Below, piece by piece: positions 21,077-42,974 of a stretch of DNA of 64,000 bases; within the stretch, counting starts at the first letter, position 1; every line of letters begins with the position of its first letter. Origin of the DNA: an uncultured Thermoleophilaceae bacterium (GTDB taxonomy: Bacteria > Actinomycetota > Thermoleophilia > Solirubrobacterales > Thermoleophilaceae); assembly GCA_963734365.1 (NCBI GenBank), contig CAVTGV010000003.1:84794-148793 (forward strand), in the 5' to 3' direction. The position numbers and the translations under genes were made by a program. The notes beneath the pieces were generated by a model. It ran no database searches. It saw nothing but the letters and a program-made list of their open reading frames with translations, and was not told where the DNA came from.

Positions 21077-22432
21077 TCACAGGTGATGCAGGTACTCGGC
21101 GATCTCCCAGTCGGAGACCCAAGCGCGGTGGCGTCCGATCTCGAAGCGCTTGACGGCGAGGAAGGTCTCCACGATCTCCGGGCCGAGCGCCCGGCACAGG
21201 ATCTCGTCGCTCTCGAGCGCCTCGAGTGCCGCGTCCAGCGATACGGGGAGTGCTCGGCCGATCGCCTCGTGGTCCGCTCGGTAGGCATCACCGTGAACCG
21301 GGGGCGGCGGACGCAGGCCCTCCCGTATGCCGTGTGCGCCGGCGGACAGCACCGCCGCGATCGCCAGATACGGGTTCGCGCCACCGTCAGCGACCCGGAT
21401 CTCTATCCGTGTGCCGGCTCCGCGCTCTGGCGGGACACGGATGAAAGTGCCTCGGTTGTCCCACCCCCAGTTCGCGTGGGTCGGTGCAAGCGAGTCAGGC
21501 TGGATGCGCCGGTAGGCGTTGACGGTGGGGTTGAGAAGCGCCATCAGGCCCGCCGCGTGGGCGAGCACACCCGCGCTGAACGCGCGGAGCTCGGCACTGA
21601 CGCCCTCCTCCTCCGCGGGCGCGCCGAACGCGTTGCGCTCGCCCCGGTTGAGAGAGACGTGGAGATGGGTGCCCGAGCCGCCCTGGTCGTTGAACGGCTT
21701 CCCCATGAACGTGGCCAGGAGTCCGTGCTGCGCCGCGATGTCCTTCACGGCGGCCTTCAGTCGAAACGCCCAATCGGCCGCCCGCAGGGCGTCGGTGTGG
21801 CGCAGATTGATCTCGTACTGGCTGTTCATGAACTCGTGGCTGAAGGAGAGGACCCGCAGCCCCAGCCCGGCCAGGCCCTCGGTAATCGCCCGCACGATCC
21901 CGCCGGGGTCCGCCTGCGGACCGACCGCGTAGACCATGCTCGGTTGGTCGACTTGGCGCCGGACGCCGCGTTCCGCGGTGGGGTCGGGGCGGAGCAGGAA
22001 GAACTCGAGCTCGGGCCCCACGATCGGGTCGAGGCCGCTTGCCCTCAGGTCTCGAACCGCCCGGCGCAGCGCGCCGCGCGGGTCCGCTATGGGAGCGCCG
22101 CCCTCGGCCGGCTCGAGATCCGCCAGGCAGCTCGCCACCCCCGGCTCCCACGGCAGCGTCGCCATGGTCGTCATGTCGGGGCGAGCGATGAAATCGGGAT
22201 AGCCCTCGTCGCCGCCGACCACGGGCGTGCCACGCAGGTCGGTGCCCATCACGGCGGCGCAGAAGCGAAGACCGTGATCGAGTACGTGGTCGAACTCCGC
22301 GATCGGCACGTCCTTGCCGCGGGCGACGCCGTGGAGATCGGCGTAGAGCACCCGGATCACCCTCACCGGCGTGCCGGTGGACAGCTCGGTGACCGTCTCG
22401 GACCGGGGGTCGCTGCGCGCGGAATCAGTCAT
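21077..22432 (-). CDS. Glutamine synthetase family protein (gamma-glutamyl-amine ligase type, substrate unknown)
   Basis: 451 aa. GS beta-grasp and catalytic domain patterns (LYADLHGVARGK, GPELEFFL, GSGTHLHVSL, NPYL). Last gene of the fae-mtdB operon. Confidence 0.85.
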   Translation of the reverse strand: MTDSARSDPRSETVTELSTGTPVRVIRVLYADLHGVARGKDVPIAEFDHVLDHGLRFCAAVMGTDLRGTPVVGGDEGYPDFIARPDMTTMATLPWEPGVASCLADLEPAEGGAPIADPRGALRRAVRDLRASGLDPIVGPELEFFLLRPDPTAERGVRRQVDQPSMVYAVGPQADPGGIVRAITEGLAGLGLRVLSFSHEFMNSQYEINLRHTDALRAADWAFRLKAAVKDIAAQHGLLATFMGKPFNDQGGSGTHLHVSLNRGERNAFGAPAEEEGVSAELRAFSAGVLAHAAGLMALLNPTVNAYRRIQPDSLAPTHANWGWDNRGTFIRVPPERGAGTRIEIRVADGGANPYLAIAAVLSAGAHGIREGLRPPPPVHGDAYRADHEAIGRALPVSLDAALEALESDEILCRALGPEIVETFLAVKRFEIGRHRAWVSDWEIAEYLHHL

Positions 22433-23509
22433 CTAAGCCAGACTGATCCCATCGGCTCCGTGCATGCGCAGGTGGTCCAGCGCGGTGCCGCTCGCCTCGC
22501 GCAGGCGGAGCCGCTCGACCAGCGGCGCGTATCGCCCTCCGGCCAGGCCGTCCGCAATCAGGGCCGCGCCCTGCGCTGACGTCTTGGCGCGCGGCCCCGG
22601 CCCGGTGGCGGCCGCGACGGGCGCCACACCAGCGAGCCGTTCCTCGAGCGCCTCGAGCATGCCGGGAGCTCCCGCCAGGCGGCCCGCGACGAGGATCTCG
22701 CGCGGCGCTGGGACCGAGGCCGTCAGGGCAAGCGCGGCCTTGACCGCGCCCTCCTCGAGCCCGAGCCATCCCTCGTGTGCGTCGGGGTCGCTGCGCAGCG
22801 CTTCGAGCGCGTCGGGCGACGAGAGGTCAAGCCGTCCGCGGGCGTCGAGCGCCCCGCCACTGAAGACGGTCTCCTTGGAGAGCGCCGCACCCAGCAGGTA
22901 GGCCACCTCCGCGTCGAGCGCCCCGCAGGAGCGAGCACCGATCGGCGCGCAGGAGCCGCCGATCCCGTCGACGATCTGTCCACCGTCGATGGCCAGCGCG
23001 GCGCTGAATGCGCCGCCGAGCTCGAGCATGACGAACGACGTCTCCTCGTAGGCCAGGCCGAGCCGCTCCGCCTGGTCGGCGATGCACAGCGCCGCGCTAC
23101 ACACCTTGTCCGCCGTCCCGAGGTCGATGCGGTTCCACTTGCGGTGGTCAGGGACCGTGGGCAGGTGGATCGCTCCGGGGCCGAAGACCAGCGGGAGCCC
23201 GGCGCCGATGAGCGCGCGAATCAGTGCGCGCAAGCCGCCGATGCCCGCGTGCGCGCCGGCTTCGTCGCTGCGCAGCAGCAGCATCAGTCCCAGCTCGTGC
23301 TCGCCGACCCGTTCGCCGGAAACCAGCGGCAGGCCATACCCGGCGGGCCCGAGCACGAGGTCGAGCGGGCCCTGAGCCAGGAGCGCATCGACCAGGGGCG
23401 CCGGATCGAGTGCGAGGTCGGACGAGCGAAAGCTCTCGGCGAGCAGCAGCTCGCCGCCGTCGAGTGCGCACACGTCGATGGAGACGGTCCCGGGATCGAT
23501 GCCCGCCAC
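22433..23509 (-). CDS. ASKHA-fold (DUF1464-like) protein of the H4MPT cluster
   Basis: GIDPGTVSIDV phosphate-1-like motif and LELGGAFSAALAIDGGQIVDGIGG. GTG 23509 was chosen to avoid overlapping mtdB. Confidence 0.65.
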   Translation of the reverse strand: MAGIDPGTVSIDVCALDGGELLLAESFRSSDLALDPAPLVDALLAQGPLDLVLGPAGYGLPLVSGERVGEHELGLMLLLRSDEAGAHAGIGGLRALIRALIGAGLPLVFGPGAIHLPTVPDHRKWNRIDLGTADKVCSAALCIADQAERLGLAYEETSFVMLELGGAFSAALAIDGGQIVDGIGGSCAPIGARSCGALDAEVAYLLGAALSKETVFSGGALDARGRLDLSSPDALEALRSDPDAHEGWLGLEEGAVKAALALTASVPAPREILVAGRLAGAPGMLEALEERLAGVAPVAAATGPGPRAKTSAQGAALIADGLAGGRYAPLVERLRLREASGTALDHLRMHGADGISLA

Positions 23510-23528
23510 CCGTGGAGCGGACGACGAG

Positions 23529-24392
23529 TCAGACGATCTCTTTGGCGACGTCGTAGACGCCATCCGCGTCAAGCAGGAGATCGCTGCTCTCGAAAAGCCT
23601 GCGCACGCAGGCCTTGTGCGTCTTCATCTTCTTGCCGCCGATGCCGAGCGCGCCGAGCACGAGCTTTCCCTCCCGCTCGACCAGATCGTCCCCGGCCTCG
23701 ACTCCCTCGATGCCGAGCGGCTCGGCCGCGTTGTAGTCGCCCAGCACCTCGATCGACGTGTTGGCGCTCCATACCTCCTGGCGGAGCACCTCCACACGAG
23801 CCGGCGCCGAGGCCAACACGATGTTCGCCCCCTCGAGCGCAGCCTCCATCTCCGCCCGGTCGGCCGGCTCGCGAGTGTCGATGCCCAGCTTCTCGGCGGC
23901 GGCAAGGCCGCGCGGCCGGCGGTAGGAGTCGGTGCCGAGCACGTCGCCCGGGATCGACGTAGCCAGCACCTCGCACCCCTCTTGTGCCAGGAGCGTCGCC
24001 GAACGCAGCCCGACGGGCCCCACGCCCAGGATCACCGCGCGGCTCCCGTCCAGGTCACGAGCCTTGGCGATCATCGCGACGGCGGTGGCCGCCGTGGTGT
24101 TGCAGCCGTCGGAGTCGAGCATCGTGGACACGCGAAACGGCCCGAAGTACGTGTCCTGCACCTCGGCGAGGACCTCCTCGCCCGCGCCCACGTCCGAGCC
24201 TCCGACCCACACGGCCAGCGAGGGGTCGCCCGGGGCGCGCGTGAAGAACGCGCCCTGGACGAGATCCTGTACGTCTTCCGGCGTCACGCCCCCGTGGCTG
24301 AGCAGGGCGTCCACGCCCGCGTCGTACGCCACGATGGCGTCGAAGGGGCTCGGATGTGGATCGGTATCGAGCTGTAGAAGGACCTTCTTCAC
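23529..24392 (-). CDS. mtdB: NAD(P)-dependent methylene-tetrahydromethanopterin dehydrogenase (MtdA/MtdB family)
   Basis: 287 aa. MKKVLLQLDTDPHPSPFDAIVAYDAG...FGPFRVSTMLDSDGCNTTAA closely resembles Mtd sequences from methylotrophs by recall. Confidence 0.85.
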   Translation of the reverse strand: MKKVLLQLDTDPHPSPFDAIVAYDAGVDALLSHGGVTPEDVQDLVQGAFFTRAPGDPSLAVWVGGSDVGAGEEVLAEVQDTYFGPFRVSTMLDSDGCNTTAATAVAMIAKARDLDGSRAVILGVGPVGLRSATLLAQEGCEVLATSIPGDVLGTDSYRRPRGLAAAEKLGIDTREPADRAEMEAALEGANIVLASAPARVEVLRQEVWSANTSIEVLGDYNAAEPLGIEGVEAGDDLVEREGKLVLGALGIGGKKMKTHKACVRRLFESSDLLLDADGVYDVAKEIV

Positions 24393-24419
24393 GGCGTGGG
24401 CCCGCGGCCCGGCGCCGGG

Positions 24420-24932
24420 CTAACCCTCGGTGCCGCCGGCGAACGGGTGGCGCGCCTCGGCCGACTGCTCGATCACGCTGCTGACGGCGGGCTCGCCGCC
24501 CATCGCGCGGGCGATCGACTCCTTGGTGGCCTGGTAGTTCCAGTCGAAGACCTTCTTGTCGTCCTCGGCCAGCCAGTGGATGAAGACGCCGACGATGATG
24601 CAGAGGTCGTCGACCTCGCCCTCGGGGATCACTCCCTCGCTGACCGAGTCGACGACGGCGCGGGCCACGGCCGCCTGGGCGGGCCCGAATATCTGCCCCA
24701 CCTGCTTCTCGCCCTTGATCGTCACCTTGTTGGCCATGATCGTGTCGGGCTTTGCGGGCAGGTTGGGCGCCACCACGGCGAGCAGGTTCGTGTGGCCCTC
24801 CTTCTGGTTCAGGAGAGCGCCGGCGAACGCCTCGCCGACGGGCCCGTCCTTGGATCCGATCAGCAGATCGATGTGAGCAACCTCGTTGCCGTCGCCTACA
24901 AGCGACTCTCCTACGGACAGGGTCCTGGCCAT
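24420..24932 (-). CDS. fae: Formaldehyde-activating enzyme (5,6,7,8-tetrahydromethanopterin hydro-lyase)
   Basis: 170 aa. [20 protein letters not shown]...[13 protein letters not shown]...FGPAQAAVA...VGVFIHW...HPFA matches Fae along its whole length by recall. RBS GAGAGGAG. Confidence 0.95.
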
Positions 24933-25042
24933 GTGTGAGCTCCTCTCTCGGGTCTCCGTGAAGGCGGCGCGAGTCTAGCGCGGCGCGCCGGTTCGGCGCG
25001 GGGCGGGCCGCCGAGCCCTCGCGGGTATGCTCCGGCGCGCGG

Positions 25043-26275
25043 ATGGTTGAGCACGCAGCGACCTGTGCCGGCTGCGGATGCGCATGCGACGACATCGAGG
25101 TCGCGGTGGCCGCCGGAGCGATCGAGGGCGCGACCGGCACCTGCCCGCTGGGCGACACGTGGCTTGCCGAGCAGACGGCCCAGGAACTTCCGCCGGCCCG
25201 CGTCGACGGCCGCGAGGTGGCCTTCGCCGACGCGGTCGAGGCCGCGGCCGCGATTCTCGGCGAGGCTCGGCTGCCGCTGGTGTGCGGCCTCGGGGAGACC
25301 GACTGCGAGAGCCAGCGCGCGGCCGTGAGCCTGGCCGAGGCGGTCGGTGCGGTGATCGACCCATCGGGGGCCGCGGGCCCGGCTTCGCAGGCCATCGGGT
25401 TGAGCACCGCCACGTTCGGCGACATCCGCGACCGGGCCGATCTGGTCGTCGCCTGGCGTGCGGACCCGGTGGCCTCCAATCCCCGGCTGCTTCCCCGCCT
25501 GCGGCTCGACCGCGCGGGGCGGGCGGCCGAGCGCATGCTGGTGGTCATCGACTCGCAGCGCAGCGCGACCGCCGGGGAAGCGGACGAGTTCATCGAGCTC
25601 TCGCCTGAGCTCGACTTCGAGGCGCTCTGGGCGCTGCGAGCGCTTGTGCGCGACATCCCGCTCGACCGCGACCTGGCGGCCCGGCTGCCGCTCGATGCTC
25701 TCGGCGAGCTGGCGAGCCGCCTCCGCGCGACGCAATACGGGGCGATTCTCCACGCACCAACCGGGTACGCGAACGGGTTCGCGCTGCTCGCACTCGTGCG
25801 CGACCTGGCCCGCAGCGCGCACGTGGTCGCGCTGGCGTTGCGGCAAGAGGGCAACGCGCGCGGCGCCGAGGACGTGCTCGCGTGGCAGACCGGGTACCCA
25901 GCCGCGGTGAGCTTCGCGCGCGGTCATCCGCGGGCGCGGCCCGGCGAGTTCAGCGCCGCCGGCCTGCTCGAGCGCGGCGAGCCCGATGCGGCGCTCATCG
26001 TGGGCTTCGACGCGCTGCGCCATCTCCCGCCACGGGCGGTCGAACACCTACGCGGGATCCCCATGGTGGTGGTCGATCCGCGCGCCACCGAGACCGCCGC
26101 GGCGGCCCGCGTTGCGTTCGCCACGGCCGCCGCCGGCGTACAGCGTGAGGGCACCGCCCACCGCATGGACGGGGTGCCCGTGACGCTCCGCGCGCCGCTC
26201 GCCTCCGAGCGTGTGGGTGACGGCGACGTCCTCGCCGCGATCGGTGCACTCATCCCCGGGGACGAGAGGACCTAG
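25043..26275 (+). CDS. fhcB: Formyltransferase/hydrolase complex subunit B (formylmethanofuran dehydrogenase subunit B-like)
   Basis: N-terminal Cys cluster CAGCGCACDD and a molybdopterin-oxidoreductase-like fold. Positioned ahead of fhcA/D/C. Confidence 0.85.
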   Translation: MVEHAATCAGCGCACDDIEVAVAAGAIEGATGTCPLGDTWLAEQTAQELPPARVDGREVAFADAVEAAAAILGEARLPLVCGLGETDCESQRAAVSLAEAVGAVIDPSGAAGPASQAIGLSTATFGDIRDRADLVVAWRADPVASNPRLLPRLRLDRAGRAAERMLVVIDSQRSATAGEADEFIELSPELDFEALWALRALVRDIPLDRDLAARLPLDALGELASRLRATQYGAILHAPTGYANGFALLALVRDLARSAHVVALALRQEGNARGAEDVLAWQTGYPAAVSFARGHPRARPGEFSAAGLLERGEPDAALIVGFDALRHLPPRAVEHLRGIPMVVVDPRATETAAAARVAFATAAAGVQREGTAHRMDGVPVTLRAPLASERVGDGDVLAAIGALIPGDERT

Positions 26276-26281
26276 CGCCCG

Positions 26282-27925
26282 ATGCTGCGCATCGCACAGG
26301 GGCGCGTCTACGACCCGGCCAACGGGATCGACGGCGAGGTGCGCGACGTCTGTCTGGACGGCGGCAAGGTGGTCGAGGAGCTGCCGGCGCACGCCCCGCG
26401 CATCGACGCAAGCGGCATGGTCGTGATGCCGGGCGGGGTGGACATCCACTCCCACATCGCCGGTCCGGCGGTCAACGCGGCGCGCAAGCTCAGCCCCGAG
26501 GAGCACCGCGGGGACGTGCTCGACCGCACGGAGATCATGCGCTCGGGCACGGGCGGCACCGTGCCCTCGACCTTCACGACGGGTTACCGCTACGCACTGC
26601 TCGGCTACACGACCGTCGTCGACGCGGCCACGCCGCCGCTCGCCGCGCGCCACACGCTCGCCGAGCTGCGCGACACACCGATCGTCGACGCGGCCTTCCT
26701 CGTGCTGATGGGGAACAACCTGCCGCTGTTCAAGCTCATCCGCGACGGGGGCCCGGTGACCGAGGCCGTGGCCTGGCTGCTCGAGGCCACCGGCGGCTAC
26801 GGCGTCAAGCTGGTCAACCCGGGCGGCGTCGAGATGTGGAAGCACGGCAACGGCAACGTCACGGCGCTGGACGACGAGGTGGAGGGTCTGGGCGTCACGC
26901 CGCGCCGCGTGCTGGAGGCGATCGCGGGCTCGGTGGACGAGCTGGGTCTCCCGCACCCCGTCCACGTCCACTGCAACAACCTCGGGGTCGCGGGCAACTG
27001 GCGCACCACGCTCGACACCCTCGACGCCCTGCAGGGGCGGCGGGCGCATCTCGCGCACCTGCAGTTCCACGCCTACGGCGGGACCCCCGGCAAGCGGCCG
27101 CGCTCGCGCGCGCCGGAGCTGGCCGAGCACCTCGACGCGCACCCCGAGCACAGCGCCGACATCGGCCAGGTGATGTTCGGGCCGGCGACCACGATGACCG
27201 CCGACGCGCCCGTCTCCGCCGTCCTGCGCGAGGTCACCGGCGGCAAGTGGGTGAACGCCGATGTCGAGGCTGAGACCGGCTGCGGCATCGTGCCCTTCGA
27301 GTACCGCGAGCGCAACTACGTTCACGCACTGCAGTGGGGGATCGGCCTGGAGCTGTTCCTGCTCAGTCGCGACCCATGGCGGGTGGTGCTCTCAACCGAC
27401 CACCCCAACGGCGGCTCCTTCCTGAGCTACCCGCGTCTTATCCGCCTGCTGATGGATCGCGAGTTCCGAAACGAGCAGATCGGGCGCGTCAACCAGAAGG
27501 CGATCGGGCGCACGATGCTCCGCGACGACCTCGAGCGCGAGTACACGCTCGGGGAGATCGCGATCATCACCCGTGCCGGGCCCGCCAGGCTGCTCGGGCT
27601 GGCCGACAAGGGCCATCTCGGGGTTGGCGCCGACGCCGACGTGACCGTCTACCGCGAGCAGGAGGACGTCGAGCTGATGTTCGCCACGCCGCGCTACGTG
27701 ATCAAGGACGGAACCGTGATCGTCGAGGAGGGTGAGCTGCGCGACACGCCGGCCGGGAACCTCCTCCGCGTGGCGGCGGATCACGACGAGGCGATCGAGC
27801 GCACGCTGCAACCGCTGTTCGACGAGCACTACAGCGTTCAGCTCGCCAACTACCCCGTGCGTGAGCCCTGGCTGCTGGAGCCGGCCCGCCGGATCCCGGC
27901 CCGGCGCAACGGGAGCGGGCGATGA
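26282..27925 (+). CDS. fhcA: Formyltransferase/hydrolase complex subunit A (amidohydrolase, FwdA-like)
   Basis: 547 aa. Metal-binding motif PGGVDIHSHIAGP. FwdA-like throughout. Confidence 0.9.
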   Translation: MLRIAQGRVYDPANGIDGEVRDVCLDGGKVVEELPAHAPRIDASGMVVMPGGVDIHSHIAGPAVNAARKLSPEEHRGDVLDRTEIMRSGTGGTVPSTFTTGYRYALLGYTTVVDAATPPLAARHTLAELRDTPIVDAAFLVLMGNNLPLFKLIRDGGPVTEAVAWLLEATGGYGVKLVNPGGVEMWKHGNGNVTALDDEVEGLGVTPRRVLEAIAGSVDELGLPHPVHVHCNNLGVAGNWRTTLDTLDALQGRRAHLAHLQFHAYGGTPGKRPRSRAPELAEHLDAHPEHSADIGQVMFGPATTMTADAPVSAVLREVTGGKWVNADVEAETGCGIVPFEYRERNYVHALQWGIGLELFLLSRDPWRVVLSTDHPNGGSFLSYPRLIRLLMDREFRNEQIGRVNQKAIGRTMLRDDLEREYTLGEIAIITRAGPARLLGLADKGHLGVGADADVTVYREQEDVELMFATPRYVIKDGTVIVEEGELRDTPAGNLLRVAADHDEAIERTLQPLFDEHYSVQLANYPVREPWLLEPARRIPARRNGSGR

Positions 27926-28821
27926 GGCTCAACGACACCGAGGTCGTCGACACCTTCGCGGAGGCGTTCCCGATGTGGGGAGCGCGCATCGTCATCACCG
28001 CCGAGAGCCCCGCCTGGGTGCACGAGGCGGCTCGCTCGATGACCGGCTTCGCCACGTCGGTGATCGGCTGCAAGTGCGAGGCCGGCATCGAGCGCGAGCT
28101 CGATCCCGCCGAGACGCCCGACGGACGGCCCGGGGCCAGCGCGCTGCTGTTCGCAAACGATCGCGAGGGTCTGGCCAAACGACTCGTGGAGCGGATAGGC
28201 CAGAGCGTGCTCACCTGTCCCACCACGGCCTGCTTCAACGGCCTCGACGGCGAGGAGAAGGTCGACGTCGGGGGACAGCTGCGCTTCTTCGGCGACGGCT
28301 ACCAGGCGAGCAAGATGCTCGACGGGCGCCGCTACTGGCGGGTGCCTGTGATGGAGGGCGAGTTCCTTGTCGAGGAGCGCTTCGCCGTGGCCGAGGGGGT
28401 GGCCGGCGGCAACATCATCATCCTCGGCCGGGACGTGGCCGAGGCACTGCACGCGGCCGAGGAGGCGGTGGCGGCGATGCGCGGGGTCCGCGACGTGATC
28501 CTGCCCTTCCCGGGCGGCATCGCTCGCAGCGGCAGCAAGGTCGGCTCCCGCTACAGCAGCCTGATCGCGTCGACCAACGAGGTGCTGTGCCCCACGCTGC
28601 GGGTCCAGGTCGAGGACACCCACGTGCCGCCGGACATCGGCTCGGTGTTCGAGATCATCATCGACGGCCTGAGCTTCGACGCCGTGCGCGAAGCCATGGC
28701 GCGCGGCCTCGAGGCCGCTGCCGGGGCAGGTGCCCGCCAGGTCACGGCCGGCAACTACGGCGGCGACCTGGGCCCACACCACATCGACCTGCGCGGCCTG
28801 GTGCCCGGTATGAGCGACTGA
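27922..28821 (+). CDS. fhcD: Formylmethanofuran--tetrahydromethanopterin formyltransferase
   Basis: 299 aa. DTFAEAFPMWGARIVITA...GFATSVIGCKCEAGIE is typical of Ftr. Its start overlaps the fhcA stop (ATGA). Confidence 0.9.
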   Translation: MRLNDTEVVDTFAEAFPMWGARIVITAESPAWVHEAARSMTGFATSVIGCKCEAGIERELDPAETPDGRPGASALLFANDREGLAKRLVERIGQSVLTCPTTACFNGLDGEEKVDVGGQLRFFGDGYQASKMLDGRRYWRVPVMEGEFLVEERFAVAEGVAGGNIIILGRDVAEALHAAEEAVAAMRGVRDVILPFPGGIARSGSKVGSRYSSLIASTNEVLCPTLRVQVEDTHVPPDIGSVFEIIIDGLSFDAVREAMARGLEAAAGAGARQVTAGNYGGDLGPHHIDLRGLVPGMSD

Positions 28822-31699: not shown

Positions 31700-31723
31700 A
31701 TTCTCGCGGCTTGTGAGGCGCGT

Positions 31724-35884: not shown

Positions 35885-36822
35885 CCGGCCTCCACACGCG
35901 CGCCACGATTGTCGAAGCTCACGACCTCCACCCGGCCGTCCCCGGCCAGCTCGGCATCCAAGCTCCGGGCCAGCTCACGGCCCGCCTGCTCGTCCCCGAC
36001 GATCCCGTAGACGGCGGGTCCCCACGAGCTCTGTCCCGCGCCCGCCGCCCCCAGGCGAAGCAGCGCGTCGACGAGGTCGCCCGCACGCGGGTGGAAGACA
36101 CCACCCTGAACCGAGGCGAATGACTCGCCCACAAGCTGCTGAACACGTGTGAGCGCGGCCCCGAACTCGGCCAGATCGCCCTCGGCAAGCCCGGGGAGCA
36201 GCGAGGTGAGCACCAGCTGGGCGATGAGCGCGGCGCGGTCTGGGTCCGGGCGCAGCTCGCCGAATGCCTCCTCCTCGGCCCGGCCCGAGAGGCCCGGCTC
36301 GGCCTGGGGGATCACGAGCACGCAGCGCCATTCCTCCGGCATCGCGTGCTGGGCCAGCAAGGGCGCCGGCCGGTCCACGCCGGGACGCCTGCCGCCCTCC
36401 ACGACCAGTCCGCCGAGGACGAATGTCCACAGTCCGACTGCCGAGCGCGCGCCGCGCCCGGCGGCGCGGGCGATCGTCTCCGGCCCCGGCGTCTGCCCCG
36501 CCAGGGCGGCCACGGCCGCCGTGACTGCGAGCGCGAGCTTGGTGCCCGAGCCGAGGCCGACATGAGGTGGGATCGCCTCGAGCACACGGACGTGCACGCC
36601 GCCCAGGAGTCCAAGCGCCTCCCGGGAGCGGCGCGCGACGGCGAGCGCCCGCTCGGCATCCGGGCCGTCGGCGGTGAGTTCGTCGCTCGGGCTCGCTTCG
36701 ACGACTGCGGCGGGACGGCCGAGGGCCACTCCCAGGCCGCCGAACCGCCGTGTGCCGCCGCCGGCGGCGTCGAGCATGCCCATGTGCAGGCGCGCGGGCG
36801 CCTCGACGCGGACGGACTTCAT
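35881..36822 (-). CDS. mptG: Beta-ribofuranosylaminobenzene 5'-phosphate synthase
   Basis: 313 aa, GHMP-kinase-like. VEAPARLHMGMLD, PPHVGLGSGTKLALAV. Confidence 0.8.
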   Translation of the reverse strand: MKSVRVEAPARLHMGMLDAAGGGTRRFGGLGVALGRPAAVVEASPSDELTADGPDAERALAVARRSREALGLLGGVHVRVLEAIPPHVGLGSGTKLALAVTAAVAALAGQTPGPETIARAAGRGARSAVGLWTFVLGGLVVEGGRRPGVDRPAPLLAQHAMPEEWRCVLVIPQAEPGLSGRAEEEAFGELRPDPDRAALIAQLVLTSLLPGLAEGDLAEFGAALTRVQQLVGESFASVQGGVFHPRAGDLVDALLRLGAAGAGQSSWGPAVYGIVGDEQAGRELARSLDAELAGDGRVEVVSFDNRGARVEAG

Positions 36823-37400
36823 CCGCTGCCCACGGCAGTGTGCACGTGTCGCCGCACGAGCTCCATCGCCTCGTGCTCCCGCGGTCCGGCCGTCTTGTCG
36901 ACGAGCACCTGCAGGCGCTCCAGCTCCGCCCGGATCTCGGAGGCGGGCAGCCGGCGCGCGCGCGAGGCGATGATCGATGCCTCGAGCACCGCATGGCAGG
37001 CGCGGTTGAAGCCGAGGAACTCCCGGCCGGTCCCGCGATCCACGACGTGAGTGGTCACACGGGCGCGCGGCCCGCTCGCGTCGATCGCGTGGACCGTCAC
37101 CTCACGCCACGAGCAGGCATCCGCCAGCACGGCCCCGTCGATCGTCGTTGCGGGCCGCGTGGGCGGGTGCGGATCGCCGAGAGCGGCCTGCGTGAACACC
37201 AGGATGTCGTCTGTGATGTTGACCACCGCCGCCCCCGTGGCCTCGAGGTTGCGCAGCGTGCGCGTGGAGGCGTAGGGCTTGATGACGATCGCGTCGTCTC
37301 CCCACTCCACTCCCATCGCGGCGCAGTTGACCGTCCCGTCCGGGTTGATCGTCGTGGTGACGGTCTCGATGATCGCGGCGCCGGGCAGGCGGTCGCTCAT
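36819..37400 (-). CDS. DUF447 family protein (H4MPT-cluster associated)
   Basis: 193 aa. IIETVTTTINPDGTVNCAAMGV is typical of this family by recall. Overlaps its neighbours by 4 nt on both sides. Confidence 0.65.
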   Translation of the reverse strand: MSDRLPGAAIIETVTTTINPDGTVNCAAMGVEWGDDAIVIKPYASTRTLRNLEATGAAVVNITDDILVFTQAALGDPHPPTRPATTIDGAVLADACSWREVTVHAIDASGPRARVTTHVVDRGTGREFLGFNRACHAVLEASIIASRARRLPASEIRAELERLQVLVDKTAGPREHEAMELVRRHVHTAVGSG

Positions 37401-38347
37401 CCCCGGAAGGACCGCTCGAGCACGCCGATGTCCACGTCCCCGGCGTGAAAGCTACGACCGCTCGCCACGCTCACCAGGCGCACCTCGGCGGGGCTGAAGA
37501 GCAGCGGGTCGATCTTGTAGAAGTCCCAGTCCGCCGCCTCGAGCACGTTGCCGAACGGCTCGCCGTAGTCATCCGAGGCCGAGGACGGGAGGCGGGGCAC
37601 GACCGCCTCGAGCTCCTCATCGGGTGCGTCGACGGTGAGCTCCACCTGGCCGCCGTACAGCACGGCGTCGTTCGTGCGGCCGATCGCCTCGGGGTCCTTG
37701 CGGGCCACGGGCGGCAGCGGGCAGCTCCCGAAGCCGCTCACCACGCGACCCACGTCGAACTCGAGCTCGTGCAGCTTGTGGAGCGCGGTCTCGACCACGC
37801 GGGCGGCGACCTGCACACTGCCTGCCAGGCAGGCGGTTGGAGCGAACAGCAGGGTCAGATCCGCGGCGGCCACGCCCGCCTTCTCGGCCACGAAGCCGGC
37901 GACCTCCTCCGGCGGAGCGTCGCGCGTCTCGAGACACAGCACAGCGTGGCGGGCACTCTCGTCGACCTCGAGATCGTCGTAGAGGTCCTCGGCCCGGATC
38001 AGCGCCCGGCCCGGTCCACTGGCCATCGCGAAGTAGTCCTCGGGGTCCAGACGCCAGCCCGCGTACTGCGAAGCGAGGCAAGCCAGCGCCGGCCTATCGG
38101 TGATGACCGTGAGCCCGGGGAGCCAGCGGCTGTCGAGAACCAGGGGCGCGAACGACACCGTGCCCAGGCCGGCCATGCAGATCTCCGCGAAGCGCCGTCC
38201 GGCCTCCAGTCCGCCCGGGACCGCGCTGCCGCAGTCGATCAGCCGCGTGCCGTTCGGCAACGTGGTCACGGCCACGCGCAGGGCTTCGGCGTCGGCCGCG
38301 AGGCTGTCGGCGAGCTCCTGGGCGCGATCGTTGAGCGAGAGCGTCAC
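37397..38347 (-). CDS. mch: Methenyltetrahydromethanopterin cyclohydrolase
   Basis: 316 aa. LIDCG...GGLEAG, ACLASQYAGW, GRTNDAVLYGG match the Mch pattern by recall. Confidence 0.9.
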   Translation of the reverse strand: MTLSLNDRAQELADSLAADAEALRVAVTTLPNGTRLIDCGSAVPGGLEAGRRFAEICMAGLGTVSFAPLVLDSRWLPGLTVITDRPALACLASQYAGWRLDPEDYFAMASGPGRALIRAEDLYDDLEVDESARHAVLCLETRDAPPEEVAGFVAEKAGVAAADLTLLFAPTACLAGSVQVAARVVETALHKLHELEFDVGRVVSGFGSCPLPPVARKDPEAIGRTNDAVLYGGQVELTVDAPDEELEAVVPRLPSSASDDYGEPFGNVLEAADWDFYKIDPLLFSPAEVRLVSVASGRSFHAGDVDIGVLERSFRG

Positions 38348-38371
38348 GGTTCGGGCCGGAGCATAGGCCGG

Positions 38372-39511
38372 TCAGCCGAGCGCCCGGAGCCCGGCGCGGT
38401 CACCGAGCTCGGCGCGGAGCGCGGCGGCACGCTCCTCGAGGTCGGCGAGAACCGCCTGTGGGGACTCCTGCATCGAGACGAGCGTGCACACAGGATGGCC
38501 GGCGGCGATGCGCTCATCCGGGTGCGGCACGTCGCGGATGCCGCGCGCAGGCCAGCCGCCGGTGTCGCCGACGCGCACGTCTCGGGTGGCGAACAGAATC
38601 GCCTTGCCGGCCGCCCGGCGCGGGCTGGCAGCGGGAGCGAACGAGGGTAGGCGCCCGGCGCAACCGTCGAGGTGAGCGGAGAAGACGCCGACGTCGTGCG
38701 CGGCCTCGATGCATTCGAGCGACCCCGTCGGACGGGGGTTGACCTCGACGACCCAGGCGCGCTCGCCGTCCCACACGAGATCCACGCCGAACAGCCCGCG
38801 CAGTTCGAACGCCGACGCCAGATGCGTGCATACCGTCCGCGCCGCTTCGGCCAGCGCGCTTTGCTCCACCTCGCCGAGCCGCGGCGGCACCAGGTTTCCG
38901 CTCCAGGCGTATCCGCGCGCGCCGAGCTTGCGGTGTCCGATCAGCTGCTCGCTCACGCCGAGCAGGACGGCCGAATGCCCGTCGGCGACGGCCGCGGCAG
39001 AGCACGCGAGCCCCGAGATGTGCTCCTGCACGACCACCTCGCCGTCGAGCGTGCCGCCGCGCCACTCGCGAACGCCCCGTCCGCCGCCGCCGCGCACCGG
39101 TTTGCGCAGCCAGCGACGCGAGCGCTCGGCCAGTCGCGCGGCGTCGGCGGCGCCGAACGTCGACGGATAGGCGAGGCCGGCCGAGCGCAGGGAGGCGGCC
39201 AGCGTTGCCGGGTCGCGCACCCGCTCGAGCGTCTCAGCCGTGCACCCCAGGAGCCTCCTGCCGGATGCCAGCCGGGCGACGAGGTCGGGCCGGTTCTCGA
39301 GTCCCGCGCCGTAGATCACGCTCGGCGCCGGAATCCGCTCCGCCGCGTCCACCAGCGCGGCCATCCCGCCCCGGCCTCCGAGGTCGCGCAGCACGGAGAC
39401 GCTCGGGCAGAGCCGCTGCAGGTCGAGATCACCGAAGCGATCGACCGCCACCACGTCGTGCCCGGCCCTCACCGCGAGCTCGGCCAGCATGCGCGCGCTG
39501 ACGGAGATCAC
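38372..39511 (-). CDS. ATP-grasp ligase of the H4MPT/methanofuran cluster (MfnD-like?)
   Basis: This is the C-terminal 380 aa of the 675-aa tracked ORF. ISVSARMLAELAVRAGHDVVAVDRFGDLD...VVEVNPRPTGS. GTG 39511 (or ATG 39490). Confidence 0.7.
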   Translation of the reverse strand: MISVSARMLAELAVRAGHDVVAVDRFGDLDLQRLCPSVSVLRDLGGRGGMAALVDAAERIPAPSVIYGAGLENRPDLVARLASGRRLLGCTAETLERVRDPATLAASLRSAGLAYPSTFGAADAARLAERSRRWLRKPVRGGGGRGVREWRGGTLDGEVVVQEHISGLACSAAAVADGHSAVLLGVSEQLIGHRKLGARGYAWSGNLVPPRLGEVEQSALAEAARTVCTHLASAFELRGLFGVDLVWDGERAWVVEVNPRPTGSLECIEAAHDVGVFSAHLDGCAGRLPSFAPAASPRRAAGKAILFATRDVRVGDTGGWPARGIRDVPHPDERIAAGHPVCTLVSMQESPQAVLADLEERAAALRAELGDRAGLRALG

Positions 39512-39537
39512 GAGGATCGGCTCGGCCGCGGGTCCGG

Positions 39538-40399
39538 TCAGAGCACGCCCTCCAGCAGCGCGACGAACAGCACGGCGGTCACGAGGTCGGCCGTGGTTCC
39601 GGGGTTGAGAGCGTTGCCGTCCCGGCGCAGCGTGCCATCGAACTCCGCGAGCGCAGTTCTGCCTCGAGCACTGCGCACACCGCCGGCGTCGAGCACCTCC
39701 CGAGCGCCGGCCGCCACGCGACCGGCCGCCTCGGCGCCGCGCTTGCGCGCGATCAGCGTGTCCGGCACGCTCGGCGAGGAGGCCCAGGGCCAACTCGACG
39801 GTCGCGTCGCGCGCACGCAGCCCGTCGCCCAGCGCATGCGCGAGAGCCGGCAGCCCAAGCTCGAAGGTCACCGCATAGTCAGAGACGTACTCGCTCGCGA
39901 TCGTGTCGCGCTGCGCTGCCGCCGCCATGGCTTCGCGCAGGCTCACGCGCGGCTCATCGCGAACGTCGTGCTCGACGGGCTCGTCGAGGCCCCCCGCACC
40001 CGCCAGCCGGATCGCCGCGTAGGCGGCGCGGGCGTCCTCGACGGTGAGCGCGCGCAGCACGTCGCCGAGGCGCTCGCGGAGCGGTTGACCCGTGAGCGCC
40101 GCGCGAGCGAGCGGCGTGAGCAGCAGCGCGATCCCGAGGTTGGTGTTGGCGCCGGCGGCGCCGCGCGAGGCGCGCACGGCGGCCAGCACGGTCTCGCCGA
40201 CTCCGCGATCGCCCGCGCAGCCCAGTTCGGGGCCGAGCGCAATCCCGCTGCGCAGCATGTCCTCGTAGGAGGTGTCCTCGAAGTCGTGGCTGGGCGTGAT
40301 GTTGCCGGGTTTCTCGGCGCTCGCCTCCAGCACGCAGGCCAGCTGCGCGGCGGATACGACATCGGTGCGCGCCGTCTGCTTGACCCGCGTGTCCGGCAT
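39538..40399 (-). pseudogene. Triphosphoribosyl-dephospho-CoA synthase (CitG/MdcB)-like protein, frameshifted near 39765-39800
   Basis: The N-terminal part (ASAEKPGNITP...) is in the 40399 frame. The C-terminal part VPDTLIARKRG...ALNPGTTADLV is in the frame of tracked ORF 39538..39858. Confidence 0.7.
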
Positions 40400-40416
40400 G
40401 CGTATAGCTTGGCGGG

Positions 40417-41187
40417 TTGGCTTCGACCGAGGACAGGTTGCAGCGGCTGGACGGCGTACGAGCCGTTGTCACTGGCGCGAGCAGCGGCATCGGCGCCGCG
40501 ATCGCCGAGGCGTTCGGAGCGGCGGGCGCGACCGTCCTCGTGACGCACCGGGACAGCCAAGAAGCGGCGTCCGCGGTCGCCGAGCGGATCGGCGGCCACG
40601 CCCTGGTCGCTCAGGCCGACCTGCGCACCCGCGGTGCCTGCGAGGCGCTCGTGGCTGAGGCCCGGGAACGCCTCGGCGGCCTCGACGTGTGGGTGAACAA
40701 CGCCGGCGCGGACGTGCTCACGGGCGAGGCGGCGGACTGGGACTGGGAGCGCAAGCTCGATCTGCTGCTTGCAGTCGATCTCAAGGGGACGGTGGCGTGC
40801 TCGTACGCCGCCGGTGCCGTCATGGGCAAGCAGCCGGGTGGTGGGACGATCCTGAACATGAGCTGGGACCACGTGGCGGCCGGAATGGCGGGCGACAACC
40901 CGGAGCTGTTCAGCGCGGTGAAGGGCGGGGTGCTCGCCTTCAGCAAGAGCCTGGCGCGAAGCCTGGCGCCCCGGGTCCGCGTGAACGTGCTGTGCCCGGG
41001 ATGGATCGAGACCGGGTTCGCCCGGGAGGCCGACAGCGACTTCCGCCGCTCGGTTGCAGAGTCCACGCCGCTCGGGCGCTGGGGCCGGCCGGAGGACGTG
41101 GCCGCGGCGGCGCTCTGGCTCGCGTCACCGGAGGCGGCGTTCATCACGGGTCAGGCCGTGAACATCAACGGTGGCGTTGTGATGTAG
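40417..41187 (+). CDS. Short-chain dehydrogenase/reductase (pteridine-reductase-like position in the cluster)
   Basis: TGASSGIGAAIA cofactor motif, NNAG, and S...YxxxK-type core (FSAVKGG). 256 aa. Confidence 0.8.
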   Translation: MASTEDRLQRLDGVRAVVTGASSGIGAAIAEAFGAAGATVLVTHRDSQEAASAVAERIGGHALVAQADLRTRGACEALVAEARERLGGLDVWVNNAGADVLTGEAADWDWERKLDLLLAVDLKGTVACSYAAGAVMGKQPGGGTILNMSWDHVAAGMAGDNPELFSAVKGGVLAFSKSLARSLAPRVRVNVLCPGWIETGFAREADSDFRRSVAESTPLGRWGRPEDVAAAALWLASPEAAFITGQAVNINGGVVM

Positions 41188-41203
41188 TGACCCGAAGGAG
41201 GCG

Positions 41204-41575
41204 ATGACAGTGGAGACGAACGCAAAGACCAAGCCCTACACCGACGATGAGGTCGAGGCCAAGATCCAGGAGGACGGCCTCGAGGGGTGGTACCTCGACG
41301 GTGACTGGCTGCGGCGCAAGTACAACACCGACGGCTGGCCGGCGACGCTCATGCTCGTCAACACGATCGGCTATCTGTCCGAGGCGGCCTACCACCATCC
41401 CGACCTGGCGGTCACGTGGGGCAAGGTCTGGGTGAAGCTGCAGACCCACTCGAGCGGCGGCATCACCGACAAGGACTTCGCGCTGGCACGCCAGATCGAG
41501 GATCACGTGCTGTGGCGGCCGGACGCCGACAGCGCGCTCGAGGGCACGCCCAACAAGTTCGTCCATAGCAAGTAG
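41204..41575 (+). CDS. Pterin-4-alpha-carbinolamine dehydratase
   Basis: EAAYHHPDLAVTWGKVWVKLQTHSSGGIT is typical of PCD/DCoH. Confidence 0.85.
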   Translation: MTVETNAKTKPYTDDEVEAKIQEDGLEGWYLDGDWLRRKYNTDGWPATLMLVNTIGYLSEAAYHHPDLAVTWGKVWVKLQTHSSGGITDKDFALARQIEDHVLWRPDADSALEGTPNKFVHSK

Positions 41576-41600
41576 GACCCCGCCGGATTCCGACACGCTC

Positions 41601-42974
41601 GTGGCCGAGCGGCTCCTGTTCGTTACCGGCAAGCTCGCCGCGCCGGCGCTCCGCGACACGCTTGACCGGACGGAGCTGCCGTTCGACTACGAGATCGCGG
41701 TCATGAAGATCACGGTGGCCGCGTTGATGACCACCACCTGGATCGCGCGCCGCCTCGAGCCGCCCGAGGCGACCACGAAGATCATGATCCCCGGTCTCTG
41801 CGAGGGCGAGACCGACGTCCTGGCGGAACGCTTCGGCATCCCCGTCGAGAAGGGGCCCGGCGACCTCAAGCGCCTGCCGAGCTGGTTCGGGCAGGCCGAA
41901 GCTCGCGCCAGCTACGGGGCACGCGACATCCGCGTGTTCGCGGAGATCAACCACGTGCCGCGGCTGAGCCGCGATGAGATCCTGGACGTGGCCGGCTACT
42001 ACCGCGAGAGCGGCGCCGACGTGATCGATCTCGGCCTCTCACTCGACCGCCGCTGGCTCGACGAAGGGCCCGAGGTGATCGCCGCGCTGCGCGAACGCGG
42101 CTTCGCGCTCAGCATCGACACGATGGACCGCGACGAGATCCTGATGGCCGACGAGGCGGGCGTGGACTACGTGCTCAGCCTCAACGGGTCGAACCGCGAC
42201 CTCGCCGAGCGCCTGCGTGCCACTCCCGTGCTGATCCCCGACACGCCGGAGGACCTCGACAGCCTCGAGGCCACGATCAACCACCTCGAGCGGCTCGGCA
42301 AGCCCTACATGGTGGACCCGATCATCGAGCCGATCGGCGCCGGCTTCGCCGCCAGCCTCGGGCGCTACCTCGAGGTGCGTCGCCGGCATCCCGAGGCGGA
42401 GATGTTCATGGGGATCGGCAACCTCACCGAGCTCACCGAGGCCGACAGCACCGGGGTCACCGCTCTGCTGATCGGCTTCTGCCAGGAGCTCGGCATTCGC
42501 AACGTCCTAACCACCGAGGTGATCGAGTGGGCGCGGGGCGCCGTGCAGGAGGCGGTGCTCGCTGCCCAGCTCATGCACTTCGCGCACGAGCAGGGCACGC
42601 AGCCCAAGCACGTCGACGGGCGGCTCTTGACGGTCAAGGACGAGGACCTGCGCCCCTATTCGGAAGCCGAGCTGCGCGAGCAGCACGCTCAGGTCACGGA
42701 CCCCAACTTCCGCATCTTCGCCGACGCCGACTGGATCTACGTCTTCAACTCCGAGCTCTTCGTCAAGGGCACCGACTTCAACGAGATCTTCGACCAGCTC
42801 GGGGTCGACGAGGCCACGCACGCCTTCTATCTCGGCAAGGAGCTGATGAAGGCCACGATCGCCCGCGCACTGCGTAAGAACTACCGCCAGGAGTCGCCGC
42901 TCGACTGGGGATATCTGACCTTCGAGGAGCCCCGTCGCAAGCGCGTCCGAGTGACAACGCGGCCAAGAAAGTAG
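41601..42974 (+). CDS. Dihydropteroate-synthase-like pterin-binding protein of methanopterin biosynthesis
   Basis: 457 aa. The central pterin-binding barrel (GADVIDLG...SIDT...VLSLNG) has N- and C-terminal extensions, as in the H4MPT-type DHPS homologues. GTG start. Confidence 0.75.
   Translation: MAERLLFVTGKLAAPALRDTLDRTELPFDYEIAVMKITVAALMTTTWIARRLEPPEATTKIMIPGLCEGETDVLAERFGIPVEKGPGDLKRLPSWFGQAEARASYGARDIRVFAEINHVPRLSRDEILDVAGYYRESGADVIDLGLSLDRRWLDEGPEVIAALRERGFALSIDTMDRDEILMADEAGVDYVLSLNGSNRDLAERLRATPVLIPDTPEDLDSLEATINHLERLGKPYMVDPIIEPIGAGFAASLGRYLEVRRRHPEAEMFMGIGNLTELTEADSTGVTALLIGFCQELGIRNVLTTEVIEWARGAVQEAVLAAQLMHFAHEQGTQPKHVDGRLLTVKDEDLRPYSEAELREQHAQVTDPNFRIFADADWIYVFNSELFVKGTDFNEIFDQLGVDEATHAFYLGKELMKATIARALRKNYRQESPLDWGYLTFEEPRRKRVRVTTRPRK

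Follow-up and report, generated by a model that had tools for sequence, protein, structure and literature searches.

Can an actinobacterium of the class Thermoleophilia oxidise formaldehyde through tetrahydromethanopterin (H4MPT) and methylofuran? The question is raised by a 64,000-nt stretch of DNA from an uncultured Thermoleophilaceae bacterium (contig CAVTGV010000003.1 of assembly GCA_963734365.1, positions 84,794 to 148,793; hereafter the window), in which an earlier note, made from the sequence alone, had singled out positions 21077-42974 as a compact island of one-carbon (C1) transfer and cofactor genes. We conclude, with a probability of about 0.8, that this block is a chromosomal, vertically inherited Thermoleophilaceae supercluster for the cytoplasmic oxidation of formaldehyde to formate with H4MPT and methylofuran. 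The pathway itself is known and ordinary; what is new is a host lineage not previously described as using it. The functional statements below rest on homology and gene context.

Because the GC content is 72% and long shadow open reading frames (ORFs) occur everywhere, the longest ORFs mislead in this DNA: GC lies between 67 and 77% throughout the window, and 107 ORFs of at least 100 aa were counted in 26 kb. We therefore called genes by third-position GC (GC3 frame plot) together with a seven-state frame hidden Markov model (HMM), and tested the calls with NCBIfam and Pfam. Curated HMMs, mostly above the equivalog cutoffs, identified the genes of all four catalytic steps as well as 15 genes for the cofactors (Table 1). 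Each gene that the earlier note had named in the interval was found, with HMM support far above chance, and the families assigned were those of H4MPT and methanofuran metabolism, not folate-linked or unrelated ones. The HMMs confirmed that fae, mch and fhcB-A-D-C encode H4MPT-linked formaldehyde oxidation; the supposed mtdB is an MtdA/B/C-family dehydrogenase, an assignment at family level that does not distinguish the B subtype or the cofactor specificity.

The families of the earlier layout stood, and the strand or frame of fhcC, the RimK ligase, the HisA-like gene and the amino-acid-kinase-fold gene had to be corrected. fhcC, the RimK ligase gene and the MfnE-like gene lie on the plus strand, unlike the longest ORFs there, and the HisA-like gene, on the minus strand, is antisense to a 5' extension of the MfnF ORF. 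Longest-ORF calls at 28755-29516, 31940-32785 and 34253-35047 (all minus strand) were rejected, as they gave zero family matches and GC3 placed the genes on the plus strand. An apparent 675-aa fusion of CitG and ATP-grasp was likewise rejected as a frameshift read-through of two genes: its linker is Arg-rich out-of-frame sequence, and relatives carry a CitG-like gene of ~320 aa and an ATP-grasp gene of ~400 aa in separate frames. The start of the fused pabAB gene is uncertain (31699 to 31816), and the functional block reaches further right than the island, through an alcohol dehydrogenase gene ending at 45187 to pqqA-E (49448-52556).

With these genes, an alcohol, probably methanol, would be oxidised to the aldehyde in the cytoplasm by the adjacent lanthanide-type pyrroloquinoline quinone (PQQ)-dependent alcohol dehydrogenase (PQQ-ADH), the most likely formaldehyde source, which would be served by its own pqqABCDE operon. 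Fae would condense formaldehyde with H4MPT or its dephospho form (together (d)H4MPT), Mtd would convert methylene-H4MPT to methenyl-H4MPT, and Mch would open the methenyl ring to give formyl-H4MPT. FhcD would then move the formyl group to methylofuran and FhcA would hydrolyse formyl-methylofuran to formate, with FhcB and FhcC as scaffold. Two biosynthetic arms are predicted to supply the carriers: a pterin arm in which PabAB (p-aminobenzoate, pABA, for H4MPT), MptG, a dihydropteroate synthase (DHPS)-like protein, a pterin-4a-carbinolamine dehydratase (PCD), a CitG-like protein, DUF447 and a short-chain dehydrogenase/reductase (SDR) would lead to dH4MPT, and a furan and polyglutamate arm in which MfnB, MfnE, an MfnF-like protein, the HisA-like Orf17, a RimK-type MyfB-like ligase and an ATP-grasp MyfA-like ligase would lead to methylofuran.

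The biosynthesis genes of the earlier list, from mptG to two ASKHA-fold proteins, were recovered family by family. All six families of the methylofuran set defined in Methylorubrum (MfnB, MfnE, MfnF, Orf17, MyfB and MyfA; PMC8141765) are present, MyfA and MyfB being assigned by family-level similarity, as is the (d)H4MPT set of MptG, DHPS-like protein, pABA supply, PCD, CitG-like protein and DUF447. The gene set maps one-to-one onto the 'archaeal-like' genes of Methylorubrum with methylofuran roles (PMC8141765, PMC3615186), where orf5 encodes MyfB, orfY MyfA, orf22 MfnB, orf21 MfnE and orf9 MfnF, and where the role of orf17, needed for methylofuran, has been shown (PMC8141765); pcbD, too, is regarded as belonging to such islands (PMC3615186). 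The RimK ligase had been called mptN-like; it does belong to the RimK family, and it is better likened to MyfB, the characterised bacterial homologue of this ligase type, than to MptN (PMC8141765). Archaea share the biosynthetic families of MfnB, E, F and D and of MptG, MptH and MptN with the window.

Islands of the Methylorubrum (Methylobacterium) extorquens type and other proteobacterial islands cover the same four catalytic steps and nearly the same cofactor families, carrying fae, mtdB, mch, fhcCDAB, orf5/myfB, orfY/myfA, orf7, orf9/mfnF, orf17, orf19-22, mptG, pcbD and pabB. Whereas Methylosinus has several islands (PMC3615186), the window has a single block of ~22 kb, in a Gram-positive-type actinobacterium rather than a proteobacterial methylotroph. 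Relative to Methylorubrum-type islands it lacks dmrA and afpA and has three extra conserved genes, for a DUF1464 protein, a glutamine-synthetase (GS)-like ligase and the SDR, whose roles are guesses. The GS-like ligase gene (21077-22432) is the first of the interval and was not named in the earlier note. Its best PDB match was GSI-alpha (1e-73), ahead of glutamate--methylamine ligase (2e-63); it adjoins the island in 13 Thermoleophilaceae loci, and a homologue of 41-44% identity sits at the opposite end of the island in two loci of other Thermoleophilia (L025 and L061, ~20.6 kb). It may act as a gamma-glutamyl-amine ligase; candidate roles are that of a glutamate-methylamine ligase and that of the gamma-glutamyl-tyramine/tyrosine ligase still missing from methylofuran synthesis. 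The DUF1464 gene, which encodes the second ASKHA protein besides the MfnF-like one, is the neighbour of mtd in nearly every Thermoleophilia locus and also in one from Chloroflexi; a search for a PDB relative of its product found none. The SDR is a candidate pterin (dihydromethanopterin) reductase, encoded in an SDR-PCD-DHPS-like triad that is kept in Thermoleophilia and Gemmatimonadota loci.

The host and the conservation of the block were examined with FhcA as a query over one genome per GTDB species, which returned 484 relatives; taxon labels are those on the records of the metagenome-assembled genomes (MAGs). The closest matches (90-95% aa) were Thermoleophilaceae MAGs, recorded as Actinomycetota, Thermoleophilia, Thermoleophilales, followed by Solirubrobacteraceae, Baekduia, Conexibacter and Paraconexibacteraceae (69-85%), Chloroflexota (62-66%), and Gamma- and Alphaproteobacteria, Gemmatimonadota and Acidobacteria (56-63%). 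Overall, FhcA and about 20 further island proteins stand at 85-95% to Thermoleophilaceae MAGs, 75-81% to Solirubrobacteraceae and Conexibacter, 62-66% to Chloroflexota and about 60% to Proteobacteria. The remaining island proteins are 72-94% identical to Thermoleophilaceae loci; against Proteobacteria FhcB reaches ~40% and the other island proteins ~60% or less. The guess of an actinobacterial-type host was thus right, with Thermoleophilia as the class, and the proteobacterial contig that would have made the island ordinary was not what we found. Synteny spans Thermoleophilaceae, Solirubrobacteraceae, Baekduia and Conexibacter, with gene content and order kept in more than 50 genome loci of Thermoleophilia and in dozens of soil contigs assembled from short reads. 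Gene order is the same throughout the Thermoleophilaceae; in Solirubrobacteraceae it is rearranged yet just as compact.

Quick neighbour-joining (distance) trees, midpoint-rooted, joined the Thermoleophilia in a single clade in 8 of 10 informative cases. In the FhcA tree the window falls inside the Thermoleophilaceae and the topology follows the families of the class, and Thermoleophilia are monophyletic in the trees of mtd, mch, fhcA, fhcB, fhcD, mptG and the RimK ligase. Their monophyly in the citG and ATP-grasp trees is trivial, as zero outgroup sequences passed the coverage filter. Three of the midpoint-rooted trees, those of fae, fhcC and the DHPS-like gene, gave no clean Thermoleophilia clade: every outgroup tip of the fae and fhcC trees lay within the clade of the Thermoleophilia most recent common ancestor, with the midpoint root among Thermoleophilia, and the sole outgroup tip of the DHPS-like tree fell within the Thermoleophilia clade. 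Of the phylogenies that had been suggested, those of Mch and FhcD therefore gave the class as a clade and that of Fae did not. Chloroflexota were the best outsiders for six of the nine genes with an outgroup match, and for FhcA. Among 8000 candidates scored with the DUF1464 protein, more than 4000 were homologues at E < 1e-5, and the best 120 were 80-89% identical and came mainly from JGI soil metagenomes, so that lineage and island appear very common in soils.

Conserved synteny begins at ~21 kb; we place the start of the block there because the ankyrin, YkuD and resolvase-like genes of the left flank have no counterpart in the flanks of relatives. Just left of this point, an ORF at 17092-18498 (plus strand) combines peptidoglycan-binding, resolvase and recombinase domains and may be a mobile-element remnant or a frame artefact.

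Directly downstream of the island lie an MSMEG_3727-family protein gene and the PQQ-ADH gene, followed by an MntP-like gene, a P-type ATPase gene and all five pqqABCDE genes in order. The nearest solved structure to the PQQ-ADH was PedH (6zcv, 3.5e-107), then XoxF (6dam, 1.4e-84). With PedH of Pseudomonas putida, ExaF and XoxF it shares the eight-bladed PQQ-ADH signature, the vicinal Cys-Cys (motif SLCCGNVNRG), the Glu/Asn metal ligands and an extra Asp two residues past the catalytic one (WDYDSV, aligned with WDFDGV of PedH); this D-x-D arrangement is the mark of lanthanide PQQ-ADH enzymes. It differs from them in its MSMEG_3727-family upstream partner, in its physical joining to an H4MPT island and in having no signal peptide: the N-terminal 29 residues are hydrophilic, and the 36 nt to the upstream gene leave no room for one. 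All characterised PQQ-ADHs of this family are, to our knowledge, periplasmic. No recognisable signal peptide was found in the MSMEG_3727-family protein (43018-43455) either, and no cytochrome c (XoxG-like) or XoxJ-like domain among the annotated ORFs of the window. When soil metagenomes were scanned with the DHPS-like protein, 65 contigs were obtained, 48 of them informative on the downstream gene; the order DHPS-like, MSMEG_3727-like, PQQ-ADH occurred in 26 of the 48. These 26 include all the informative loci whose best DHPS-like tblastn match was at least 86% identical, except for the short L145, and pqqC/E were also found on nine soil contigs. The linkage of island and PQQ-ADH is a family-level feature, and the idea of an alcohol-to-formaldehyde-to-formate module in the earlier note was thereby strengthened, since in numerous soil contigs, independent of one another, the island is followed directly by PQQ-ADH and pqqABCDE.

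Other genes recur in this neighbourhood. The MntP-like permease (45326-45997) and a P2-type cation ATPase (46632-49203) are found near the island or the PQQ module of relatives at varying positions (L037 17110-20400, inside the island between mfnB and mfnE; L097 12114-12641 and 17887-19779; L132), a pattern that may point to metal handling in connection with the PQQ-ADH, whether for Ca, Mn or a lanthanide. A distant homologue of R2-like ligand-binding oxidases (52534-53655, minus strand) recurs in L021, L025, L031, L033 and L061 (at ~17.5 kb) and in L088, L089, L097, L120 and L132; it follows pqqE in Thermoleophilaceae and lies inside the island, between mfnE and mfnB, in Solirubrobacteraceae.

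We argue that the alcohol dehydrogenase feeds the H4MPT pathway, because PQQ-ADH and pqq genes are linked to the island so repeatedly. That methanol is its substrate we only infer, because PedH, an ethanol-type enzyme, is a closer match to it than XoxF. The same genes could instead serve formaldehyde detoxification or auxiliary energy gain rather than methylotrophy, a reading that we regard as possible although we do not favour it. The PQQ-ADH would then be a general dehydrogenase of ethanol and higher alcohols (PedH/ExaF-like), formaldehyde would come from demethylations, and formate would be excreted or oxidised elsewhere. The closer match to PedH fits this, as do an aldehyde dehydrogenase and a Zn-dependent alcohol dehydrogenase downstream and a window without an assimilation cycle or formate dehydrogenase. 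In a 13C-methanol stable-isotope probing study, moreover, Thermoleophilia and Solirubrobacteraceae MAGs were left out of the proposed methylotrophs, and a toxicity-related role was proposed for 12 further MAGs outside the methylotroph set that had Fae without other methylotrophy genes (PMC10994693). On the other hand, the Thermoleophilia and Solirubrobacteraceae MAGs of that study came from 13C-labelled DNA, and a dehydrogenase tied tightly to the island, together with its pqq operon, in just over half of the informative loci is not what this alternative leads one to expect.

Whether the module is intact in this genome was a further question, as eight frame disruptions lie within 14.6 kb (35.5-50.1 kb): one each in mfnB, the citG-like gene, the PQQ-ADH gene and the P-type ATPase gene, and two each in mntP and pqqB, at 35565, 39770, 44460, ~45470-45670, ~48275, ~49933 and ~50086. 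If real, they would leave a strain able to make neither methylofuran nor PQQ. It is thus conceivable, but in our view unlikely, that the module is decaying here, with the alcohol dehydrogenase and the synthesis of methylofuran and PQQ lost. The clustering speaks for decay, the remaining ~49 kb holding at most about two candidate disruptions (near 15129 and 54740), and so does the nature of the three indels compared base by base with relatives, all single-base insertions outside long homopolymers. Near 35565 in mfnB the extra base is missing in four relatives, and the two halves of the product match profile positions 1-109 and, in a different frame, 113-227; near 39770 in the citG-like gene an extra C stands relative to L008, and the relatives' proteins align in two frames; at ~44460 in the PQQ-ADH gene relatives have either G or C where the window has both ('CG').

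Opposed to decay is, first, that very site, since both bases of a polymorphic position side by side are typical of a consensus from mixed strains. The affected genes are also single-frame in the short-read contigs of relatives, including PQQ-ADH copies of 95-99% protein identity, and in each split gene the two parts show the same degree of conservation as intact genes do. Sister long-read MAGs are frameshifted in other genes (mfnE in L006, mptG in L041, citG in L033). As relatives lack them, the disruptions are probably consensus errors, which we consider the likelier cause by a good measure.

The formate-releasing end of the route depends on the Fhc complex, whose genes fhcB-A-D-C are contiguous, with A, D and C above their cutoffs and B below. 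The position of fhcD between fhcA and fhcC means that the formyltransferase is encoded with the complex, as in Methylorubrum. In FhcA all ligand motifs of the binuclear metal site (HxH, carboxy-Lys, two His and Asp) align with archaeal FwdA. Both FhcA and FhcB match archaeal Fwd subunits better than Methylorubrum Fhc subunits: FhcA matched FwdA at 2e-145 to 9e-137, and FhcB matched FwdB (5t5i_B) at 1.6e-63 and Methylorubrum FhcB (6s6y_B) at 3.9e-13. The formate-releasing Methylorubrum Fhc is marked by loss of Cys118, His119 and Arg288 in subunit B and also lacks the N-terminal [4Fe-4S] domain of that subunit and FwdD (PMC6926001). We aligned 67 bacterial FhcB homologues, 40 from Thermoleophilia and 27 from other groups, with M. 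wolfeii FwdB and confirmed the numbering. The tungsten-ligating Cys118/His119 pair is missing in 40 of 40 Thermoleophilia sequences and is deleted in the window, whereas Arg288 is retained in 39 of 40, the window included, and the four N-terminal Fe-S cysteines (CxxCxxxC...C), which may bind a cluster, in 38 of 40. Of the features set out for Fhc (PMC6926001), the block therefore shows Cys118/His119 loss, the absence of a FwdD 'fourth domain' subunit, fhcD linkage and an intact FhcA metal site, but neither the loss of Arg288 nor that of the N-terminal [4Fe-4S] domain. Because Cys118/His119 are lost in all 40 Thermoleophilia sequences, we expect formate as the product, and the complex is predicted to release it; Thermoleophilia Fhc would stand between Fwd and the Fhc characterised so far.

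The remaining 27 FhcB homologues, from Chloroflexota, uncultured Gamma- and Alphaproteobacteria and Gemmatimonadota (loci L043-L080), show a different pattern. Cys118-His119 is kept in 26 of them and Arg288 and the four Fe-S cysteines in all 27, so these 26 look dehydrogenase-competent, unlike the Methylorubrum and Thermoleophilia proteins. Clusters of Chloroflexota, Gemmatimonadota and uncultured Gammaproteobacteria in this set share the fhcBADC core, mch, mtd and CitG-like/ATP-grasp genes with the window at 40-66% identity, and those of Gemmatimonadota additionally share the SDR-PCD-DHPS-like triad.

A reductive, Fwd-like complex that fixes CO2 or formate onto methanofuran and H4MPT as in methanogens is very improbable. 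The closeness of FhcA and FhcB to FwdA and FwdB and the retained cysteines and Arg288 would suit it, and the archaeal Fwd/Fmd, Ftr and Mch system does have its amidohydrolase metal site and, in subunit B, the Fe-S cysteine motif in common with the window. Yet the residues that ligate tungsten or molybdenum are deleted in all 40 Thermoleophilia sequences, FwdF and FwdG are absent alongside the fhc genes, and no FwdD-like ORF was found in the island, where each coding segment of 21-43 kb was assigned to another family. The block also has Fae, an Mtd of the NAD(P) type and an alcohol dehydrogenase gene tied to the island; unlike in archaea, the expected direction is oxidative and ends at formate. 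Since Cys118/His119 are lost and FwdD is absent from the island, we rejected this reading. Hardly credible at all is a recent horizontal island from Proteobacteria or another phylum on an actinobacterial contig, to which the end of synteny at ~21 kb and the resolvase-like ORF might point, and which we excluded by the identities (85-95% to Thermoleophilaceae, far above the proteobacterial values), by trees that follow the families of the class, by a GC content equal in island and flanks, and by the occurrence of the island across the class.

Several points nevertheless weigh against a working formaldehyde-to-formate pathway in this lineage, whose activity is predicted from genes. In this assembly mfnB, the citG-like gene, the PQQ-ADH gene and pqqB are frame-disrupted. 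Profile scans of the ORFs found no mfnA, mfnC or pabC in the window and no formate dehydrogenase or C1 assimilation genes in the 64 kb, and neither DmrA (DHFR-like) nor the AfpA/DmrX flavoprotein type of dihydromethanopterin reductase had a family match among window ORFs; the SDR or DUF447 may replace this reductase, or its gene may lie elsewhere in the genome. Thermoleophilia FhcB, with its Fe-S cysteines and Arg288, is unlike characterised Fhc, and the PQQ-ADH is closer to an ethanol-type enzyme than to XoxF, without a signal peptide or a recognised cytochrome partner nearby. The trees, finally, were built quickly by neighbour joining and include neither archaeal nor planctomycete references.

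Table 1 Genes of the C1 island and the adjoining PQQ module, in window coordinates, with the profile matches on which the names are based.
Gene product	Coordinates	Strand	Evidence
Glutamine-synthetase-like ligase	21077-22432	-	Gln-synt_C 6.3e-101; under NCBIfam cutoffs for GS I, GS III and PuuA
DUF1464 protein (ASKHA, butyrate-kinase-like)	22433-23572	-	PF07318 4.8e-78; weak butyrate-kinase match
Methylene-H4MPT dehydrogenase, MtdA/B/C family	23529-24392	-	Mpt_N 9.3e-27; MtdA 1lu9_A 2.3e-69, residues 2-286
Fae, formaldehyde-activating enzyme	24420-24932	-	TIGR03126 2.3e-73, 245.5 bits, cutoff 118; Pfam Fae 1.4e-69
FhcB, scaffold subunit	25043-26275	+	TIGR03129 1.1e-91, 307.5 bits, just under cutoff 327.8
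FhcA, formyl-methylofuran hydrolase subunit	26282-27925	+	TIGR03121 2.3e-205, 683 bits, cutoff 393
FhcD, formylmethanofuran:H4MPT formyltransferase	27922-28821	+	TIGR03119 1.1e-123, 412 bits, cutoff 293; Pfam FTR, FTR_C
FhcC	28821-29639	+	TIGR03122 4.4e-78, 262 bits, cutoff 131; GC3 frame on plus strand
Fused PabA-PabB aminodeoxychorismate synthase	29564-31699	-	TIGR01823 5.5e-122, one stretch, residues 42-722; GATase and Chorismate_bind
RimK-family glutamate ligase, MyfB/MptN-like	~31724-32611	+	MptN_Meth 5.1e-69; rimK_fam 3e-58, 197 bits, cutoff 143; Pfam RimK 2.9e-32
HisA/HisF-like barrel, Orf17-like	32517-33329	-	His_biosynth 2e-41; TIGR00734 3.4e-34
MfnF-like protein (Hydantoinase_A/ASKHA fold)	33510-34514	+	TIGR03123 4.6e-94, 315 bits, cutoff 244; MfnF 3.3e-66; Hydantoinase_A 2e-33
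MfnE-like kinase, amino-acid-kinase fold	34508-35182	+	NF040622 4.7e-29; AA_kinase 7e-21
MfnB, 4-(hydroxymethyl)-2-furancarboxaldehyde-phosphate (4-HFC-P) synthase, split	35179-35884	-	Joined in silico, full-length match 8e-67
MptG, beta-ribofuranosylaminobenzene 5'-phosphate (beta-RFAP) synthase	35881-36822	-	TIGR00144 1.2e-43, 149.6 bits, cutoff 113.5; NF040726 6.7e-48
DUF447 protein, FMN-binding split-barrel-like fold	36819-37400	-	DUF447_N 5.5e-21; DUF447_C 2e-11
Mch, methenyl-H4MPT cyclohydrolase	37397-38347	-	TIGR03120 1.5e-117, 392 bits, cutoff 229
ATP-grasp ligase, MyfA/MfnD-like, separate gene	38372-39511	-	ATP-grasp_3 6.1e-25; weak MfnD match
CitG-like protein	39538-40399	-	CitG 8.8e-44; 1-nt insertion near 39770
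SDR oxidoreductase	40417-41187	+	adh_short_C2 1.5e-53
Pterin-4a-carbinolamine dehydratase (PCD, pcbD-like)	41204-41575	+	NF002017 1.4e-24, 86 bits, cutoff 80
DHPS-like protein, MptH-like	41601-42974	+	TIGR00284 2.7e-51, under cutoff; DUF6513 9.4e-23; pterin-binding domain
MSMEG_3727-family PQQ-associated protein	43018-43455	+	TIGR04339 9.7e-75, 249 bits, cutoff 75; PF23509 4.2e-74
PQQ-dependent alcohol dehydrogenase, lanthanide type	43492-45187	+	Joined: TIGR03075 4e-177, 590 bits, cutoff 480
PqqA	49448-49522	+	MKWIKPEFEIIDLCTEVTLYLYNR; 25.6 bits, cutoff 20
PqqB	49565-50475	+	Three frames; joined 9.8e-104
PqqC	50472-51212	+	5.5e-96
PqqD	51209-51472	+	3.2e-24
PqqE	~51456-52556	+	9.7e-152

Beyond the block, a 474-aa ORF at 7420-8844 (plus strand) had been described as an extracytoplasmic function (ECF) sigma factor fused to a zinc-binding anti-sigma (ZAS) domain. 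Its residues 29-205 do match sigma-70 domains, and only these; the fusion is perhaps not real, because other read-through artefacts occur in the window. The genes at 55977-60730 encode a DapA-like lyase, a protein of the proline racemase/4-hydroxyproline epimerase family, a D-amino-acid oxidase (DAO)-type FAD oxidoreductase and an aldehyde dehydrogenase, which looks like a catabolic cluster for hydroxyproline or proline derivatives, apparently unrelated to the island. A tRNA-Pro (CGG) at 54750-54825 (minus strand) was the sole RNA gene detected in the window by ARAGORN and Rfam, and the Rfam scan found no riboswitch there.

H4MPT and methanofuran genes in 'Actinomycetes' received a one-sentence mention in passing in 2016 (PMC5020050), and our full-text literature searches found no description of the H4MPT pathway in Thermoleophilia.

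Plant-derived methanol and formaldehyde have a major sink in soil, for which nearly all the credit has gone to Proteobacteria, next to some Verrucomicrobia and Acidobacteria. The class Thermoleophilia ranks with the most abundant Actinomycetota of soils, and we know of no recognised methylotroph among its members. In this setting, an island that is very common in soil metagenomes and, in one family, firmly joined to the genes for a lanthanide-type alcohol dehydrogenase and for PQQ synthesis offers natural variants of known enzymes, an Fhc with an Fe-S domain and a PQQ dehydrogenase without an export signal. It also holds candidate genes for the dihydromethanopterin reductase that is still missing and for the first glutamyl ligase. 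It is a tentative and, taken as a whole, doubtful proposal that Thermoleophilia are overlooked lanthanide-dependent oxidisers of C1 compounds and alcohols with a wholly cytoplasmic module (a PQQ-ADH without signal peptide, its MSMEG_3727-type partner, and H4MPT and methylofuran), an Fhc that stands in evolution between the Fwd of archaea and the Fhc of Proteobacteria, and non-orthologous replacements in cofactor synthesis (a dihydromethanopterin reductase of the SDR or DUF447 kind, a gamma-glutamyl ligase related to GS and a kinase of the DUF1464 family). Should the genes serve detoxification only, they would extend a known pathway to one more phylum, which is routine. An active module would bring an abundant, hard-to-culture actinobacterial class into C1 and lanthanide cycling, and 13C-methanol labelling that has been read as cross-feeding would need a second look.

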